Of a stretch of 64,000 nt of DNA, positions 4,227-54,300 are shown in pieces (positions within the stretch are counted from its first letter, which is position 1; every line of letters starts with the position of its first letter). Under the pieces are notes generated by a model. The model saw nothing but the letters and a program-made list of their open reading frames with translations. It searched no databases and was not told the DNA's origin. The stretch is from assembly GCF_049060185.1 (NCBI RefSeq), contig NZ_JBMEQO010000002.1. One strand, given 5' to 3'. The position numbers and the translations under genes are program-made. This stretch comes from Nannocystis pusilla (GTDB taxonomy: Bacteria; Myxococcota_A; Polyangia; Nannocystales; Nannocystaceae).

Positions 4227-4334
4227 GCGCGTAAAAACGGCCATGTCGTGAAGGACATGGCCGAAGAGTCATGTGGCCTGTCGATCGGCGCGCGTGGCCG
4301 GGGGAGCGGCGACGCGCGGCGGCCGGCCGGGGCC

Positions 4335-4694
4335 TCAGCGGCTCTCGAGCTTGAAGCCGGTGAGGCAGCGCTCGCCGCCGTTGCCGGCCTTGTAGGTCGG
4401 CGTGACCTCGACCTGCTTCTTGGCGCGCAGGGCCTCGAACAGCAAATTGATCGAGTTGGCGCTGAGCTCGCGGCCGGGGCACAGCGAGCCGCCCCACTTG
4501 TAGTCGCGCTTTTGCCCGGTCTTCTCCTTGATGGAGACCGAGCCGTTGAACATGGCGTGGTTGTCGCTGCTGCTCTCGTAGAGGGTGACTGCTTCGACGT
4601 TGCCGACCGTGCCGTTGGAGTCGGCGAAGGCGGCGGCGGGGAGCATCAACGCGGTCAGCGCGGCGAGCAGGGACAGACGAGGACGTTGCGACAT
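4335..4694 (-). CDS. small secreted protein (hypothetical)
   Basis: Internal Met of the 225-aa minus-strand ORF gives MSQRPRLSLLAALTALMLPAAAFADS (signal peptide) plus an approximately 95-aa mature domain with two Cys. The tandem palindromic array 4866-5075 lies immediately upstream. Confidence 0.55.
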   Translation of the reverse strand: MSQRPRLSLLAALTALMLPAAAFADSNGTVGNVEAVTLYESSSDNHAMFNGSVSIKEKTGQKRDYKWGGSLCPGRELSANSINLLFEALRAKKQVEVTPTYKAGNGGERCLTGFKLESR

Positions 4695-4865
4695 GTGTGA
4701 TTCTCCTGGGGGTCGGCCCGTGGTGGGCACTCGGACTGCGGGCGCCAGGGTCCTATTTGCGTCCCCGACCTGCAACTCCCAGTGAGCTCTCGATCTGGGC
4801 GAGATCGCGGGCCGAGGGCGCGTCAGCGCCCTGCGGGCAAGCGGCGACAGGGCTGGCCTGGAGAC

Positions 4866-5075
4866 AGAGATGTCTCTCGGGACATGTCGCGCCCGCGCGC
4901 CGGGACACGTGACCGCCGAAGCGGAGCGTGTCTCGGGACAGGTCGGTCGCGTGCAGGGCTCGGGAGACCGGCGGGGACCGAGGGTGTCTCTCGGGACATG
5001 TCGCCCGCGCACGCGGACAGCCGACCGGCCCGTCGACTAAAATGTCTCTCGGGACATGTCGAATGCGACAGTGTC
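4866..5075. repeat. 4 tandem units (56-58 bp period) each carrying the 20-bp element RTGTCTC(TC)GGGACAKGTCG
   Basis: Copies at 4870-4889, 4928-4946, 4984-5003 and 5042-5061. Each is ATGTC-N6-GACAT inverted repeat fused to the palindrome GACATGTC. Flanked by GAGACAgagaTGTCTC and GCGACAgtGTCGC inverted repeats. Confidence 0.85.
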
Positions 5076-5087
5076 GCGAGGGGCAGC

Positions 5088-6007
5088 TCAGCCGCGCGCG
5101 CGCAGGGCCGCGCGGATCTTGGCGAGGGTGTCGTCGAGGCGCGAGGCGGGCACGCTGACGCGCGTCGGCATGCCGCCGCCGAGGCCGAGCAGGGCGACGA
5201 AGTCGAGGCCGCTGGCGAAGCTGGCGGCGATGTTCAGGGTCTGGCCGTCGATGACGACCGCCACGGGGCGCGCTCCTGGCCGAGCAGCAGCAGCTCGGTC
5301 TTGTCGAACGAGCGCGGATTGCCGGGCACGCGCACGAGGGCGACGCCGTCCTCGACGACGTAGGCGCGGGCCAGCGCGGCGGCCTCGGCGGCCATGGCGT
5401 CGAAGTCGGCGGCGGCGGCGGCGATCGCGTCCTGCTCGGCGCCGCGCGGGCGGCCGGCGACCAGCCAGCGGACGATCTTGTTGAGGAGGACGGTGTCCTC
5501 GTAGTGGGCCCGCAGCGCCTTGTCGACGAGGGCGCCGACGGGGCCGACCTCGCCGATCCGGGTGTCGACGGCGCGGGCGTCGGCGTCGGCGCCAGGGTAG
5601 GGCTCGACGCCGCGGAGCAGCCACTTGGCGGCCGAGTAGAGGCCGTCGAGGTCGAAGTGGGCGACGATGGTGTCGACCGGACCTGTCTCTTCGACCATCT
5701 GCGGCGTGATGATCTCGGGGCAGGCGCCGTGCTCGGCCTTGGTGTGGAGCACGAAGCGCGAGTCGCCGCGGAACTGGGCGTGGCGCTCGTGATCGTGGTG
5801 GTCGACCCACCGGGCCAGGCGCGCGCCCAGGCCGGTGAGGAACTTGCCCGTGATCTTCTCGAAGCCGCTGCCGATGCCCTCGGCCGCGAAGGCGACGTCG
5901 AGCACGACCACGCGGCCGCGCAGGTTCGCGGGCTTGGGCAGCCGCCGCGGACTGGCGAACACCAGGTCGATCGCGGCGGCGTCGGCGAGCCTGGACGTGG
6001 CGCTCAC
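5088..6007 (-). CDS. hypothetical protein (possible metal-dependent hydrolase), 1 frameshift
   Basis: N-terminal part in ORF 5234-6007 (MSATSRLADAAAIDLVF...WVDHHDHERH...). C-terminal part in ORF 5088-6125 frame (...VVIDGQTLNIAASFASGLDFVALLGLGGGMPTRVSVPASRLDDTLAKIRAALRARG). Start overlaps the stop of the upstream TPR gene. Confidence 0.4.
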
Positions 6008-7003: not shown

Positions 7004-9858
<2,855 letters not shown>

Positions 9859-9884
9859 GCGGGTCGGTGCGCTGCTGGTGCGGA

Positions 9885-10062
9885 TGAAGGGGCATGTCCC
9901 CAAGGGCATGTCTTGATGGGCATGGCTTTTGGGCATGTCTCGAAGCGCATGTGCCAGGCGCTGCTTGATGCGCTGTCTCGGAGGACAGGCGTCGTCGGGC
10001 ATCGTCCATATTAGACATGACCTGGAGGGCATGTCCTTTCGGGCATGTCATGCGAGGCGTGA
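9885..10062. repeat. two 14-bp-phased arrays of GGGCATGTC-type palindromes
   Basis: CATG cores at 9893, 9907, 9921, 9934, 9948 and at 10016, 10030, 10044, 10058. A TGTCTCGGAGGACAGGCGTCG element lies between the two arrays. Upstream of the glycine-rich lipoprotein gene. Confidence 0.85.
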
Positions 10063-10125
10063 CGCGCAGCACGGGCGGTGTTTGCATCGCGGACGGCGCC
10101 GCGCATCCCTGGGGAAGGGGTGGCG

Positions 10126-10974
10126 ATGCAGGGGAGCGGCTCACACATTCGACCCGGGGGCCGGGCCGCGGCGCTCGTGGCGCTGCTCGGCTGCCACGCG
10201 CCCGAGATCGTGGGGCTCGACGGGATGGTGCCGGACGGGGTGCCGGCGTGCGCGGGTCCGGGCGGGCGCGGGTTCGGATTCACGGGCGGGCCGCAGGTGT
10301 TCGTGGTGCCGGAGTGCGTGACGACGCTGTCGGTCGAGCTGTGGGGCGCGCAGGGCGGTCCGAGCCGCTGCGGCATCGACGAGATCCACGGGCTGCCCGA
10401 CGTGCAGATGGACGGCGGTCGCGGCGGCTGGCTGCGCGCCGAGCTGCCGGTGCGACCCGGCGAGGTGCTGCTGGTGCTGGTGGGCGGGCGCGGCGGGATC
10501 GACGGGGCGCCGGGGTGGAACGGAGGCGGGCGCGGCGGCGTGTGGGCCGGCGGCGGTGGCGGCGGCTCGGACATCCGGATCGGTGGCGCGAGCTTGATCG
10601 ATCGCGCGCTGGTGGTGGGCGGCGGAGGTGGCGGCTCGTGCGGCTTTCCGGACCACGGGGCGGGTGGCGATGGCGGGGGGCTCGTCGGCGACGACGGGAT
10701 CGTGGGCGAGGACTTCTGGAGCGCGGGCGGCGGGGGCAAGCAGCACGCAGGGGGCGCAGGCGGCTCGTCGCCCGGCCAGTCGGGCGTGTTCGGGCTCGGC
10801 GGCGGAGCGGCGCGCTATCACGTGGCCGGCGGCGGCGGCGGCTGGTACGGCGGCGGCGGAGCCTTCGGCGCGGGCGGTGGCGGCGGTTCGTCGTACGTCG
10901 GCGTGGCTGCGGACGAGGTGGAGTTCGAGGCGGGAGCGCGCCGCGGCGACGGTGCGGTGCAGATCTACTGGTGA
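10126..10974 (+). CDS. secreted glycine-rich lipoprotein (Gly_rich family, as recalled Pfam PF12810-like)
   Basis: Lipobox ALLGC. Motif FTGGPQVFVVPECVTTLSVELWGAQGG followed by GGRGG / GGGGGS / GGGGGW(Y)GGGG repeats. Pattern matches the eukaryote-expanded 'glycine rich protein' family. Confidence 0.6.
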   Translation: MQGSGSHIRPGGRAAALVALLGCHAPEIVGLDGMVPDGVPACAGPGGRGFGFTGGPQVFVVPECVTTLSVELWGAQGGPSRCGIDEIHGLPDVQMDGGRGGWLRAELPVRPGEVLLVLVGGRGGIDGAPGWNGGGRGGVWAGGGGGGSDIRIGGASLIDRALVVGGGGGGSCGFPDHGAGGDGGGLVGDDGIVGEDFWSAGGGGKQHAGGAGGSSPGQSGVFGLGGGAARYHVAGGGGGWYGGGGAFGAGGGGGSSYVGVAADEVEFEAGARRGDGAVQIYW

Positions 10975-11058
10975 CCCTCGGGCCGCCGGGCGCGACGCGA
11001 GGTCACTGTAGCGAGCGGGGCTGCGTTGCAAAGTCCGCGCTTCGGCCTCGAGGCCGGT

Positions 11059-11290
11059 GTCGGCAGCGGCGATGCTTCGTGGCGGTGTGATTCGTGGCGG
11101 GCGAGCGGCGACCGGCTGCGGGGGCGATGCGTGGCGGTCGGCAGCGGCGATGCTTCGTGGCAGGCGAGCGGCGACGGGCTGCGCTGGCGATGCGTGGCGG
11201 AGGGCGAGCGGCGACGGGCTGCGGCTGCTCCGCGGCGGCGATGAGACGTGGGCGGAGGGCGAGCGGCGAGGAGTCGCGGGTGTGCTTCGG
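11059..11290. repeat. intergenic tandem direct repeat (about 76-bp unit, 2 full plus 2 partial copies)
   Basis: gtcggcagcggcgatgcttcgtggc...gggcgagcggcgacSggctgcg...ggcgatgcgtggcgg is repeated starting at 11059 and 11135. Partial copies at about 11203 and 11251. All three frames are open, which is a GC-repeat artefact. Confidence 0.8.
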
Positions 11291-11533
11291 CGTCGCTCTC
11301 GATGCCGGCGGTAGGGTCGCCGCGGAGGACTGTGGCGATCGCTTTGCGCGGGGATGCGTCGCGGACGGCGATCCGGCGAGGGGTGGTGCGGTGCTTCGAC
11401 GCCGGTAGAGCTATGGTCTTTTGGACATGTCTTGAGGGTCATGTGAATGATCGCGGGTGACTGGCGACACAGGGGTGTTTGCGTGGAGGCCTCGTGAGCA
11501 TCATGCCTACAGGTCGCAGGGGAGGCCGCGCAG

Positions 11534-12570
11534 ATGGTTCTCGAGGGTCGGTGGCGTACGGTGTCGGTGATGCTCGCAATCGTGTCCGGCGGCTGCGACG
11601 AGATCACGGACACTCGCCACTTGCGACCGGTGCCCAGCACGGTCGCCGGTGCCGGGGCGGAGGCCGACGATGCGCTGGCGCTCGAGTGCGAGGCGGAGGC
11701 GCTCGACCTGTGCGAGGCCGAGTGCGTCGATCTCGCGAGAGACGCGCGTCACTGCGGCGGCTGCGGGCGCGTGTGCGCCGGCACGTGCGCGGCGGGCTAC
11801 TGCGAGGCGCAGTGCGGGCCCGGCCAGATCCGCTGCGACGGGCGCTGCGTCGACCGCACGCGCACGACGCCCGACGGGAACGCGCGCCAGTTCGAGTTCA
11901 CCGGCGCGCCGGAGACGTTCGTGGTGCCCGAGTGCGTGTCGCGGCTCACCGTCGAGCTGTGGGGCGCGCAGGGTGGCGGTTCGCGCTGCTGCGACGGGAT
12001 CGATCAGGCGGACGGAGGGCTCGGCGCCTACGTGCGGGCGGAGCTCGAGGTGGAGCCCGGCGAGGCGCTGCAGATCCGCGTCGGCGGGCGCGGCGGGCTC
12101 GAGGGCGCGGCGGGCTACAACGGCGGCGGGCTCGGCGGCGCGTTCGCGGGCGGCGGCGGTGGAGCCAGCGACGTGCGCCAGGGCGGCGGTACGCTCGACG
12201 ACCGGATCTTCGTGGCGGCCGGCGGCGGGGCGGGCAGTGTGGCTGCCCGGACCACGGCGCAGGCGGCCCGGGCGGGCTAGCGATCGGCGGCCCCGGGGTG
12301 GCGCTGCTGCCCGAGTGGCAGGCGGCCGGCGGGGGCACGCAGAGCCACGGCGGGGCCGAGGGCTCGACGCCCGGCGAGGCGGGCGGGTTCGGCGAGGGCG
12401 GGGGCGGCGGGGTCTATCACGTGGCAGGGGGCGGGGGCGGCTGGTTCGGCGGCGGCTCGGCCCACGCGGCGGGCGGGGGCGGCGGGTCGTCGCTCCTCGG
12501 CGCCGACCCGGCCGGCAGCGGACTGCCCGCGGTGCGCGCGGGCGACGGGCTGGTGCGGATCCGCTGGTGA
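11534..12570 (+). CDS. secreted Cys-rich plus glycine-rich protein, paralogue of 10126-10974, 1 frameshift
   Basis: N-terminal Cys-rich module (CEAECVDLARDARHCGGCGRVCAGTCAAGYCEAQCGPGQIRCDGRCV), then FTGAPETFVVPECVSRLTVELWGAQGGGS... and Gly repeats. Frame change at about 12270 (ORF 11534-12280 into ORF 11479-12570). Confidence 0.55.
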
Positions 12571-18153: not shown

Positions 18154-18590
18154 TGGTCGAAGAGACAGGTCGGGCGAGGCCCGGCGACGGTGTTTTGAAC
18201 GGGCGCCGGTGGCCGCCGGAGCGGCGCGCTCGGCCGCGGCCCGAGGCCGAGCTGCTCGAAGGACATGTCCGGGGCGGTCTGCAGCGGCGGGGTGCGCGGC
18301 GCGGAGGTCGGGTGGGGCGATCGCGTGCGGGTGATGGTGGCTGTCCGAAGAGACATGTCGCGCCGGCTGCAGGGCGGGGCGGGCGACGCGACGGCCGGGC
18401 GGCGAGGTGGCGAAGCAGGAGCGCGCCGGCGAACGGGCTGAGGCTCGCTAGAGGCGGCCGAGCTGCGGGATGACGATGTTCGGCCGGTACGCCGCAGATG
18501 TCCGAAGGTCATGTCACTCATGGGTGCCGGACAGCGCGCCGAGGTCGGTGCATTCATGATTTTTAAAAGAATGTCCGAAGGGACAGGTCG
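18154..18590. repeat. 5 dispersed copies of the 20-bp element TGTCCGAAGRGACAKGTCG in a divergent promoter region
   Basis: Copies at about 18154, 18254, 18341, 18497 and 18569. The spacer is CGAAG in every copy at this locus, so this is a local subfamily. An AT-rich island CATTCATGATTTTTAAAAGAATG lies at 18550-18572. Confidence 0.8.
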
Positions 18591-18909
18591 TCGCGGGCGC
18601 AGCGGTGATCGGCGGCACTCGAACGAAGGTGATCGCAATCGCAGGTGTAGGATTCACGGGCCCACGAGCTTCCGCACGAGCGCTCGGCTTGACCGCTCCA
18701 CAGGCCGCGTGTATCCCCAAATCGATGCTCCGGCGCGCCACCACCGCGACTACTACCACCACCCTTCCGGGTGGGGTCGGTCGCGTGCGCGTGCGCTGAG
18801 AGCTTTCGAGACACACGCCCTGCGAAGCCCCGCCCGAGCCGGCGGGGCTTTTGCGCGCATGGTGGCGTCGCTCCGTCCGGCCGGTCCTTTCACCCCGGAG
18901 ACCGCCGCC

Positions 18910-24784: not shown

Positions 24785-24860
24785 ATGCATGATGGGACAT
24801 GTCGTCAAGGACATTGTCATAATGACATGTCTTTCATGACATGTTCTTGAGGACATATCT
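24785..24860. repeat. 5-unit 14-bp-phased array (GACATGTC, GACATTGTC, TGACATGTC, TGACATGTT, GGACATATC)
   Basis: Cores at 24798, 24812, 24826, 24840 and 24854, plus off-phase CATG at 24788 and 24835. Lies between the convergent 3' ends of the M16 and OmpA genes. Confidence 0.85.
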
Positions 24861-51337: not shown

Positions 51338-54300
51338 ATGGGCCGGCTGTTCGGCGAGCCGGCCGCGCCCACCATGATCGGCCGCTTCCACGTCGAGCGC
51401 CGGCTCGGGGAGGGGCCATGGGCGTCGTGTATGCGGCCGTCGACGCCCAGCTCAATCGCCGCGTCGCCATCAAGCTGCTGCACCCGCACCTCCAGGGCGA
51501 CGACCAGGGTCGCGCCCGCCTGCTGCGCGAGGCCCGGGCGATGGCACGCCTCGAGCACGAGCACGTGGCGCGGATCTACGAGGTCGGCGCGTGGGGCGAC
51601 CAGATCTATATCGCCATGGAGCTCATCGAGGGCGTGACCCTCGAGGCGTGGCTGCGCGAGCGCCCGCGGCCGTGGCAGGAGGTGCTCGCGGTGTACCTGC
51701 AGGCCGGGCGGGCGCTGGCCGCGGCCCACCACGCCGGCCTGCTGCACCGCGACTTCAAGCCCGAGAACGTGCTCGTCGACAGCCGCGACCGCGCGCGCGT
51801 CCTCGACTTCGGGCTCACCTGCGCCCTCGATTTCGGCGAGGCCCTCGACGACGAGCTGATGCCGCTGACGCGCACCGGCAGCATCCTCGGCACGCCGGCC
51901 TACATGGCGCCCGAGCAGCAGCGCACCGGCAACGCCGAGCCACGCTCCGACCAATTCAGCTTTTGCGTGGCGCTGTTCGAAGGTTTGTTCGGTCTGCGGC
52001 CGTTCGGCTCGCTTCCGCGCTTCGGGCAGGTCGAGATCGCGCCCATTCCGCGCGAAAGTCGCGTGCCGTTGCGCGTCCGCCGCGCGATCATCCGCGGCCT
52101 GTCCGAAAAGCCAGCCGAGCGCTGGCCGACGATGGAGGAGCTGCTCGCGGCCCTGCAGCCGCGGCGGCGCTTCTCCGAGAGCCCCGAGCCGGTGCCCGCG
52201 CGGACGTGGCTGATCGCCGGCGGCGCGGCGGCCACCGCGGCGGGGCTGGTCGCGCTCGGGGTGTCGCTGGCGCAGCCCGACGCCGGCGCAGGCGCGGCCG
52301 CGGCCCTGCAAACTCCGGCGCCCGACAGCGCCCCCGCGGACGCGCAGGCCGGCGAGCTGGCAGTCGAGCGCGCGGCCGCGGAGCGCCAGGCCCACGCGCT
52401 GCGGGTCCGCGACGCCGCGTTCTCGCTGCTGCCGCGCGACCCCACCGCCGCCGCTGCTGCTGCGCGAGCTCGACGAGCCGGGCGCGCTGGCCCAGCGCGT
52501 GCTGGCCGAGCCGATCAGCCAGGCGATCCTGCGCGGCCACGACGGCGCGGTGACTGCGGTGCGCTGGATCGAGGCTGTCCCGGGGGACAGGAGCGCGCCG
52601 CCGGCCGGCGCGGTGCCGGGCGCGGTGGGGCTGTCCGCGAGGACAGGTCGAGCGCGAAGGCGGGAGATGTCCGCGAGGACAGGTCGAACGCGCACCGGCG
52701 CGAGGTCGTGCTGGCGAGCGGGGCCGTGGCTGCGGTGACTGTCCCCAGGGACAGATCGAACGCGCACCAGCGCGAGGTCGTGCCGGCGAGCGGGGCCGGA
52801 TCCGCGGCGGCACCTGTCCCCGCGGACAGGTCATCTGCGCACCAGCGCGAAGTCTTGCTGGCGAGCGGGGCCGTCGCTGCGGTGCCTGTCCCCAGGGACA
52901 GGTCGAACGCGCACCCGCGCGAGGTCGTGCTGGCGAGCGGGGCTGGATCTGCGGCGCTCGCTGCTGCGCCTGTCCCCGCGGACAGGTCGATCGCGCACCC
53001 GCGCGAGGTCGTGCTGGCGAGCGGGGCGGTGCCGGTCGCCGGTGCGCCTGTCCCCGGGGACACGTCGGCTGTCCCGCAGGACAGCCCGCGGCCCGCCGCG
53101 GCCGCCGAAGATCTGCGCGGCGCGGTCGAGACGGTCGACGCCGCCGGTAACGTCCGCCGCTTCGCCCTCGCCGGCGGGCCGCCGACGCCGGGGGCAGGCG
53201 GCGCCGCGCCCGATCCGCGGCGCGGCCCCGGCGGCGAGCAGCTCCGCACCGACGCGCGCGGCGGCGTCTCTCTGGTCGCGGTCGATCGGGTCACGCCGTT
53301 GCGGGGCGTCGCCGGTCCGCTCGCGGGGGTCGCCTGGAGCCCCGACGGCGCGCGCGTGGCCGCGGCCGGTCCGCGCGGCGAGGTGTGGGTGGTCGCGGAG
53401 GGGCGCGCGGCCCTGGTCGTCGCTCGCGGTGCGGCCGTCGGCGCGCTGGCGTGGGACCGCAACGGGCGCCAGCTGGCGATCGGCCGCGACGACGGCGGCG
53501 TCGAGGTGTGGCGGGTCGACGGCGCCCCGCGGCGGGTCGCCGCGGTGGTCGGCGACGGCGGCGTCACCGGCCTGGCCCTCGGGACAGGTTGGTTCGCCAG
53601 CGGCAGCGACGACGGCAGCGCGCGGGTGTGGCGGATCGGCGGGACCGCGCGCCCTACGTGCTGCGCGGGCACACCGGGCCGGTGCGGGCGCTGGCGTTCG
53701 CGCCGGTCGGCGTCCGCTTGATCACCGGCAGCGACGACGGCAGCGCGCGGGTGTGGCGGCTGGCGCCGGCCGCCCTGCGCGAGCACGACCTCGGCGCGAC
53801 CGTGCACGCGCTCGCGTGGAGCCCCGACGGCACCGCTCTGGCCGCCGCCGGCGCGCGCAGCGTGTGGCTGCTGCCGACCGACGACGGCCCGGTGCGCCGG
53901 CGCGACCACGCAGGCACCGCGCAGGCGCTGGCCTGGCGGCGCGACGGGCAGGAGCTCGCGGTCGCCGACGACAGCGGCGCGGTCACCTGGATCCCCGCGG
54001 CGAGGGGCGACCCGGCGCGTCAGCGTCGATCGCCGCCCGGTGTCCGCCCTGGCCTGGGACGCTCGCGCCGATCGCCTGGCCGCCGGCGGCAGCGAGGGCG
54101 CGTTCTTCTTCTGGCCTTCGGGACATGACTTCAAGGACATGCTCGATCCGTCCCGCGCGCCGCAGGGCCGCGGGGCCATCACCGCCATGGCGTGGTCGCC
54201 GGTCGACGAGCGGCTGGCGGCGGTCACCGCCTCCGGCTTCGTGCTGGTGCGCGTCGAGCAGACGGTGTTCATCGAGCTCGGCCACCCGCTGCGCGCGCTG

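Follow-up and report, generated by a model that had tools for sequence, protein, structure and literature searches.

The array at positions 4861–5075 of the window (the whole 64,000-nucleotide stretch of Nannocystis pusilla DNA analyzed here) is probably a locally amplified cluster of a REP-like Nannocystis gene-end repeat. On this reading it is part of the upstream gene's 3′ flank, not an operator of the small gene that follows it. A sequence-only reading had described the copies of the array and had offered two explanations for them: local duplication, as in MITE/REP clusters, and a CRP/FNR-like operator that would place the small gene under tight, cooperative control.

The array and its neighboring genes

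The four-copy array lies far beyond chance. Sequence inspection, a mismatch search, and a repeat finder all show four alike copies with the consensus (R)TGTCTCTCGGGACATGTCG, which start at 4870, 4928, 4984, and 5042 and are thus 56, 58, and 58 bp apart from start to start. When up to three mismatches are allowed, the 19-mer has seven matches in the window against 0.04 expected, four of which fall in the array. The sequence-only reading had reported four near-identical copies at 56–58 bp, the second with a 2-bp deletion, and the sequence and the mismatch search both bear this out. It was also right to see 1.5 units of a 14-bp motif in each element.

The whole cluster (4861..5075, not assigned to a strand) comprises four cores of 18–20 bp, orphan half-sites, and diverged spacers. 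Core copy 1 (4870..4889, minus strand; plus-strand sequence ATGTCTCTCGGGACATGTCG) is the closest of the four to the small gene; its gene-strand sequence, CGACATGTCCCGAGAGACAT, consists of a complete TGTC-N6-GACA site plus an orphan GACA half-site. Copy 4 (5042..5061, minus strand; ATGTCTCTCGGGACATGTCG) is the same as copy 1 over 20 nt, and copy 3 (4984..5003, minus strand; GTGTCTCTCGGGACATGTCG) is the same over 19 nt. Copy 2 (4928..4945, minus strand; GTGTCTCGGGACAGGTCG) is degenerate, having a 2-bp deletion and a T>G change, and carries GACAGGTC where the other cores have GACATGTC. Because the window shows many 1-bp deletions relative to its closest relative, the deletion in copy 2 may be either real or an assembly error. 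Beside copy 4, directly after the stop codon of the upstream gene, lies a further unit of the 14-bp lattice (5057..5075, no strand), which reads TGTCGAATGCGACA and then GTGTC. The opposite edge, facing the small gene, is formed by the inverted repeat GAGACA-GAGA-TGTCTC (4861..4876, no strand).

The 37–40 bp between cores are only about 55–67% alike. This is why Tandem Repeats Finder did not call the array at 4861–5075, and the missing call indicates that the array is not a simple, recent tandem duplication. We also rejected a decayed 4 × 14 lattice as the origin of the spacing, as the second TGTCC of every spacer is off the lattice. Regular conserved repeats, separated by dissimilar spacers of about 37–40 bp that differ between close strains, are features shared with CRISPR arrays. 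However, CRISPR repeats are 23–47 bp long and have unique spacers, whereas the cores of the array are 18–20 bp, occur in four to five copies, and belong to a genome-wide motif. The syntenic 20 kb contain no cas genes or domains. A CRISPR array is thus ruled out by the short repeats, the homology of the spacers between species, and the lack of cas genes.

The cluster sits in a 393-bp gap between two minus-strand genes, bounded by the stop codon (5088–5090) of a 306-aa gene (5088..6007) and the ATG (4694) of the small gene (4335..4694). It begins 12 nt past the stop codon, in the 3′ flank of the upstream gene, and its other edge is 166 nt before the small-gene ATG. The 306-aa gene has no match in Pfam; its copy in the window is frameshifted near 5264, and its orthologues are intact. 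The product of the small gene is 119 aa long; its N-terminus is signal-peptide-like, and it lacks any Pfam domain. An exact-protein look-up of this protein returned no record, and homologues were used in its place. It is 99% identical to a hypothetical protein of Nannocystis pusilla and has 38 homologues, most from Nannocystis and metagenomes.

Between the array and the small gene lies a conserved proximal region (4695..4860, minus strand), which includes GTTGCAGGTCG...GCAAATAGGAC and an AGGAGA ribosome-binding site. This region is likely to hold the small gene's own promoter and regulatory signals. Inspection of the block by eye gave no convincing fit to a sigma-54 or a sigma-70 promoter. Downstream of the small gene is a canonical terminator (4238..4263, minus strand; CGGCCATGTCC-ttcac-GACATGGCCG followed by TTTTT) that is built on the array motif and is kept in three species. 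The window has a GC content of 73%.

A motif family at gene 3′ ends

The array element is one variant of a motif family that is abundant throughout Nannocystis. The unit of the family is CATGTC-N6-GACATG, with cores (G)GACATGTC(C) set on a strict 14-bp lattice. Chance would give 0.55 copies of TGTC-N6-GACA and 0.66 of GACATGTC across the window; the observed numbers are 32 and 23. These copies lie mostly in non-coding gaps, often head to tail at 14-bp steps. Core-to-core distances are 14 bp in 167 cases, 28 bp in 59, 42 bp in 38, and 56 bp in 13, and never 13 or 15 bp. The local subfamilies that the sequence-only reading had placed at 18154–18590 and in the kinase repeats (52576–53083) are correct. 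Exact copies of the 18-mer GACATGTCCCGAGAGACA are found in other species at unrelated loci, some of them in arrays with a different period, such as the 36-bp arrays of loci L083 and L093. An Rfam scan of the whole window found no family, and no account of this repeat, or of TGTC-N6-GACA in myxobacteria, turned up in the literature that could be searched.

We scanned one genome per species, from 185,579 species, for TGTC-N6-GACATGTC-N6-GACA. Among the matches listed, 78 of 120 blocks came from Nannocystis or Nannocystaceae. Six cultured Nannocystis species have 0.33–0.47 sites per kb, leaving out ascertained matches, against about 0.009 per kb by chance; two Nannocystaceae MAGs have fewer sites than these six. 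Extrapolation from the sampled density suggests thousands of sites per Nannocystis genome of 11–13 Mb.

The family follows gene 3′ ends, not promoters, which is the opposite of the pattern of an operator. Our census took in about 0.7 Mb of Nannocystis DNA with 448 intergenic regions. Genes were called from codon-position GC (GC3), and the calls were checked against one annotated locus (L001), where stops and strands were right for 16 of 17 genes. Site density is 6.4 per kb in convergent regions, 2.45 in co-directional regions, 0.65 in divergent regions, and 0.25 in coding DNA. At least one site is found in 53 of 89 convergent, 83 of 277 co-directional, and 12 of 82 divergent regions; without and with ascertained regions, the shares range over 39–60%, 19–30%, and 11–15%, respectively. 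The corrected values, with ascertained regions dropped (39, 19, and 11%), are those expected if each gene 3′ end has an independent chance of about 0.19 of carrying a site.

Distances within regions show the same bias. Across co-directional gaps, the median distance is 36 bp from the upstream stop to the first site and 197 bp from the last site to the next start. Only 14 genes in the approximately 0.7 Mb, a mixed set of enzyme genes, are preceded by a site at 80 bp or less. Divergent regions with sites are long, and inspection of N-terminal sequences found no regulators among the flanking genes. In the window, nearly all arrays follow a stop codon. Spacer composition is nearly symmetric relative to transcription. 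The tight, cooperative control of the small gene that the density of the array had suggested is therefore not supported, as sites come after stops, stand about 200 bp from starts, and are rarest in divergent regions. In addition, similar arrays occur genome-wide regardless of context, which is the finding that had been named beforehand as refuting the regulatory reading.

Some arrays of the family lie inside genes. The array at 52576–53083, whose periods of 72–84 bp are all multiples of three, occupies an open linker of an 818-aa protein kinase plus WD40 ORF. An AMP-binding/ApeI-like gene contains an in-frame array with a 48-bp period, and its protein varies from 617 to 684 aa among species. 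L093 has an in-frame array with a 36-bp period. In total, about 96 sites are interior to called genes, many of them clustered. These in-frame arrays indicate that amplification is a DNA-level process that acts wherever two cores lie close. As arrays are tolerated in genes, the motif alone cannot be a strong terminator or roadblock.

Copy number at the locus varies between species, and the edges of the cluster are conserved. Gene order around the 306-aa gene is shared by N. pusilla, N. bainbridge, N. punicea, and N. radixulma. The orthologous gap measures 213 to 470 bp in the other four species, against 393 bp in the window, and contains one core in N. radixulma, two in N. punicea, four in the window, and five each in N. 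pusilla and N. bainbridge. The first site after the stop (TGTCC-N4-GGACA-c-TGTC) is kept in all five species, as is the core nearest the small gene together with its GAGACA-N4-TGTCTC inverted repeat. In the approximately 165 bp adjoining the small-gene start (GTTGCAGGTCG...GCAAATAGGAC, AGGAGA included), blocks are invariant across the five species. The interior of the array shows no conservation among them. At a locus with a single site, the half-sites are invariant in five species, and the 4-bp center and the flanks vary freely.

The closest relative shows how quickly such arrays change. Over a 14.7-kb comparison, identity is about 92% by global alignment and 94–97% over aligned blocks, and third codon positions flanking the array differ by 0–5%. 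Orthologous spacers of the array have only 67–83% identity, where the background is about 60%, and the two arrays differ by the gain or loss of one whole unit. Every motif array within the 14.7 kb is an indel-rich hot spot of low identity. The copy number and arrangement of motif arrays are thus hypervariable among close relatives, yet the intergenic regions that carry the motif are the same ones in all five species. This indicates that the arrays are old residents that expand, contract, and reshuffle in place.

We suggest that the locus began with two sites immediately downstream of the stop of the 306-aa gene. Units of about 57 bp would later have been gained or lost through unequal exchange or replication slippage involving neighboring cores, giving one to five copies. 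The control region of the small gene would be the conserved 165 bp at its start, separate from the array, although the core nearest the small gene, which is conserved in all species, may contribute to its regulation. Local duplication in the manner of MITE/REP clusters, one of the two original proposals, is upheld by the genus-wide abundance of the family, the occurrence of GACATGTCCCGAGAGACA elsewhere, and the range of one to five copies among five species.

A purely selfish or mutational origin, in which the copies are relics of a mobile miniature element or slippage-prone palindromes that survive where they are harmless, would account for several of these features. The distribution is REP-like (PMC3733652), copy number and arrangement are hypervariable among close relatives, and arrays have many periods (36, 48, 57, and 72 bp, and others), coding linkers included. 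Against this origin, half-sites are invariant across five species and the bases next to them are variable, and cores stay intact and spacers have drifted to background similarity. We also found no transposase in 0.76 Mb of Nannocystis DNA, a small sample, and a tblastn search of the same DNA with an approximate E. coli RAYT query gave no match. The occupation of the same intergenic regions in all species and the conservation of half-sites in five species argue for function over selfish persistence. We therefore regard selfish DNA as a very improbable explanation.

Recognition of the motif: RNA structure or protein

The motif is probably constrained in sequence rather than in structure. A covariation test of six variable position pairs found Watson-Crick pairing at the level expected under independence, with no pair above it. 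On this lack of covariation we rejected RNA or DNA structure as the main constraint. Stems in the family are mostly 4–6 bp. Downstream T-tracts (at least four T) accompany 8 of 131 sites on the sense strand and 8 of 131 in the antisense control, and are thus not enriched. With short stems and no T-tract enrichment, we rejected the family as intrinsic terminators, the one exception being the site at 4238–4263. No terminator-like site was found within 4695–5087.

A role in RNA nevertheless deserves to be weighed, because these bidirectional elements sit at 3′ ends and show enrichment between convergent genes. In such a role, TGTCC-N4-GGACA hairpins in the 3′ UTR of the upstream gene would end transcription or shield the 3′ end of the mRNA, perhaps with the help of a dsRNA-binding factor. 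Of the 60 kb scanned, 40 kb contain about as many canonical terminator-like sites as chance predicts (4 against 4.1 and 4 against 3.6 expected). The last 20 kb (40–60 kb) have 12 against 4.2 expected; these look weak and were counted regardless of gene ends. A few family members are themselves canonical terminators, such as 4238–4263 with its conservation in three species, and TRIT in Mycobacterium provides a precedent (PMC3152330). The array region also folds better than shuffled sequences (z = −2.4 sense, −4.4 antisense). Sense-strand mismatches show a slight excess of G-T over A-C (129 against 96, p = 0.03), which is the single, weak hint of an RNA-level role.

Set against these points are the absence of covariation, the short stems, and the lack of a directional T-tract. 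Every copy of the array has a C-A mismatch on the sense strand, and it is the antisense strand that folds better. In-frame arrays are tolerated inside genes, and Rfam has no match in the window. An RNA role is thus rather unlikely. Conserved half-sites without covariation or T-tracts make a sequence-specific protein likelier than an RNA hairpin. Judged from sequence, the motif is most likely read as sequence, and most simply by a dimeric DNA-binding protein.

The geometry of the motif hints at what may bind it. Inverted repeats with a 6-bp spacer are shared with CRP/FNR operators, which are bound by dimers. However, the half-site in Nannocystis is (CA)TGTC(C), in contrast to TGTGA/TCACA in CRP and TTGAT/ATCAA in FNR, and tandem lattices and a 3′-end distribution are foreign to CRP/FNR regulons. 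The CRP/FNR-like operator of the sequence-only reading is thus not supported, the half-site being neither and the sites not being promoter-associated. The underlying idea of recognition by a dimeric protein fares better, as the site is plausibly of a dimer type, but its match is of the PadR type.

In Bacillus subtilis, the PadR dimer binds C-N-T-G-N-A-N6-T-N-C-A-N-G, that is, ATGT-N8-ACAT, and in the crystal PadR dimers are placed every 14 bp along pseudo-continuous DNA (PMC5728393). The PadR operator and the Nannocystis motif both have two 6-bp arms, a 6-bp spacer, and 14 bp from CATG to CATG. The outer positions of the Nannocystis consensus are C in 70% and A in 66% of cases, and its variable positions (TG[T]C, G[A]CA) fall on N positions of the PadR site. 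The two differ in the innermost base of the arm, which is C/G in the Nannocystis motif and A/T in the PadR site. They also differ in location, as Nannocystis sites lie at gene 3′ ends in thousands per genome, whereas PadR operators lie over promoters and number a handful.

A second link to PadR comes from actinomycetes. Among the matches listed, the GACATGTC lattice directly adjoins PadR-type genes in seven loci, from Actinomycetospora, three Pseudonocardia, Dactylosporangium, Nocardia, and one MAG. All seven genes share a PadR-type N-terminus (MSLRHALLGLL...), and the three that were scanned all contain PadR and Vir_act_alpha_C domains. The actinomycete lattice is thus likely, from its sequence context, to be an autoregulatory operator beside these genes. 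In Nannocystis, tblastn and a profile HMM of five actinomycete PadR proteins gave nothing significant in 0.76 Mb of DNA, and no PadR gene was found near the array. Nor do the sites overlap promoters as PadR operators do, as they show a 3′-end bias and none of the 14 genes with a close upstream site is a regulator by inspection of its N-terminal sequence. We take the match to the geometry of a PadR-type winged-helix dimer as a hint of what may bind the motif, a resemblance and not proof. A dimeric DNA-binding protein of this geometry could read the sequence of the motif.

The same evidence bears on whether the array is an operator after all, on which a PadR-like or other helix-turn-helix repressor would act cooperatively at four sites to control the small gene. 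Every core does hold a complete dimer-type site of PadR geometry, and the same lattice, likely autoregulatory, stands beside PadR genes in the seven actinomycete loci among the matches listed. The nearest copy and its flanking inverted repeat are kept in five species, and an absence of covariation is expected of a protein site. However, the family is 3′-end-biased and rarest in promoter-only regions, the median distance from a site to the next start is about 200 bp, and genes with a site at 80 bp or less are few. The array itself has one to five copies between species and hypervariable spacers, and it ends 166 nt from the ATG, beyond a block that is conserved separately. No PadR gene was found nearby or in the 0.76-Mb sample. 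An operator array is thus distinctly improbable, and we return to the gene-end repeat as the preferred reading.

Such a repeat may insulate transcription units from one another or act as a roadblock between them, may have a topological role like that of gyrase at REPs, or may do no more than persist at places where an insertion is least harmful. One specific version holds that an abundant PadR-like, winged-helix protein polymerizes on the 14-bp lattices at thousands of gene 3′ ends and serves as a roadblock, insulator, or topological barrier. We consider this version improbable. If it were true, the length of the array (one to five copies) would tune insulation from the upstream neighbor. The setting of such a polymer is a genome of 73% GC with very few canonical terminators.

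Relation to known repeats and significance

The Nannocystis family resembles REP and BIME elements in many respects. Both are short, lineage-specific palindromes with hundreds to thousands of copies per genome, and both are extragenic and mostly downstream of genes, favoring convergent and co-directional regions and rare in divergent ones (PMC3733652). In both, clustered units alternate in orientation, relatives differ in copy number at a given locus, and a few copies are genic. There are clear differences, however. The Nannocystis unit has a 14-bp period, a length of 14–18 bp, and a full site of 18 bp, whereas a REP is 20–40 bp long with a stable stem-loop. Unlike those of REPs, the Nannocystis stems are too short for stable hairpins and show no covariation, and the strict 14-bp lattice with shared half-sites is a feature of the Nannocystis family that sets it apart from REP/BIME. 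The REP tags are at background level in the array flanks (GTAG in 2 of 660, CGTC in 33 of 660). REPs are also associated with a RAYT (Y1 transposase) gene that they flank, and the tblastn search of the 0.76 Mb sampled showed no such gene. As the family lacks the size, the stable hairpin, and the GTAG/CGTC tag of REPs, we call it REP-like and do not class it as a REP member.

TRIT in Mycobacterium is a further parallel. It too is genus-restricted, palindromic and hence bidirectional, conserved in sequence, and located at gene termini, and both it and the Nannocystis family occur in high-GC lineages poor in canonical terminators (PMC3152330). The authors of the RNIE paper, who described TRIT, likewise suspected a binding factor, then unknown (PMC3152330). 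TRIT differs in being a single long hairpin with about 147 copies that overlaps the stop codon (PMC3152330). The Nannocystis motif, in contrast, is a 14-bp unit in arrays, has thousands of copies, and stands at a broad range of distances from stops.

The dense array at 4861–5075 is no evidence of special regulation of a small secreted protein. If our reading is correct, a single short motif on a fixed lattice marks a large fraction of the transcription-unit ends in Nannocystis. The family would then account both for hypervariable intergenic regions and for in-frame linker repeats. Nannocystis genomes are 11–13 Mb in size and are mined for natural products; in these, the motif could help to predict gene ends and operon boundaries, and strain typing in the style of REP-PCR would be possible. 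The family would also point to a sequence-specific factor, possibly PadR-like, and would be a case of an operator-type site multiplied thousands of times outside promoters.

Motif copies at the end of the small gene and at promoter-like matches

The small gene (4335-4694, minus strand), which encodes a 119-aa protein with a signal-peptide-like N-terminus, ends in a terminator made from the family motif itself, the Nannocystis-wide palindrome CATGTC-N6-GACATG. This canonical intrinsic terminator (4238-4263, minus strand) reads CGGCCATGTCC-ttcac-GACATGGCCG followed by TTTTT and lies between a convergent gene pair. N. pusilla and N. bainbridge both retain it; its sole variable part is the loop. 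In N. punicea (L004 10433-11608) and N. radixulma (L005 10364-11533), an inserted beta-lactamase-family gene separates the small gene from the DUF3261 gene; this gene is missing from N. pusilla, N. bainbridge and the window.

Sigma-70-like promoter matches number three in 60 kb of the window (5014-5043, 11422-11451, and 24794-24823), and each of them falls within a motif array; the GGACA half-site resembles a -35 hexamer there, and AT-rich spacers resemble a -10. Motif copies whose spacer is CGAAG recur at 74-98 bp intervals at 18154-18590, within ~750 bp devoid of coding signal. The apparent neighbors are a minus-strand gene on one side and a plus-strand gene, starting near 18693, on the other. 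The array could be an uncommon case on the promoter side of a gene.

Variable gaps and in-frame repeats

The gap 3' of the VWA gene (window 9828-10066, with orthologous regions in L001, L002, L004, and L005) is full of motif copies. We find that their arrangement is wholly different in each of five species, with the flanks conserved; the gap spans anywhere from ~100 to 460 bp, with arrays of 100-120-bp period present in some species. Another block, at window 10967-11463, fails to align to N. pusilla, and several indels of 41-110 bp are present; a 63-bp tandem repeat (11091-11214) falls within this block.

The motif family also makes in-frame coding repeats, since the open linker of a Ser/Thr kinase plus WD40 ORF (818 aa) contains an array at 52576-53083. 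The array's nine TGTCCNNNNGGACA sites are nine perfect TGTC-N6-GACA matches, and their periods (72-84 bp) are all multiples of 3. Other in-frame arrays occur at L001 18647-18905 (48-bp period) and L093 4579-4760 (36-bp period). The AMP-binding/ApeI-like protein that holds one such array differs in length among four species (684, 640, 642, and 617 aa), which suggests that the repeat drives length polymorphism.

Single-base deletions in window genes

Relative to N. pusilla (L001), single bases are missing from conserved genes in the window at 1673, 2410, 3930, 5264, 7030, and 8307, and further at 12226, 12667, 12824, 13861, and 14707. These missing bases frameshift the MMPL gene, the 306-aa gene (5088-6007, minus strand) and the VWA gene, all unbroken in four related genomes. 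They are probably assembly errors, at ~1/kb, rather than marks of pseudogenes.

Lattices outside Nannocystis

Among Rhodobacteraceae (Sulfitobacter and Roseovarius), GACATGTC lattices of 2-3 units with AT-rich spacers occur in non-coding DNA (L041, L044, L051, L072, L096, L097, L111, and L123); no regulator gene was identified next to the lattices at these eight loci. Within actinomycetes, the GACATGTC 14-bp lattice, with 2-3 cores, directly adjoins a PadR-family gene at seven loci (L016 6433, L021 5186, L075 6870-6953, L077 5611, L084 6604, L085 1717, and L124 956). PadR and Vir_act_alpha_C domains were confirmed for three of the seven adjacent genes. The actinomycete lattices beside PadR genes are likely to be autoregulatory operators.
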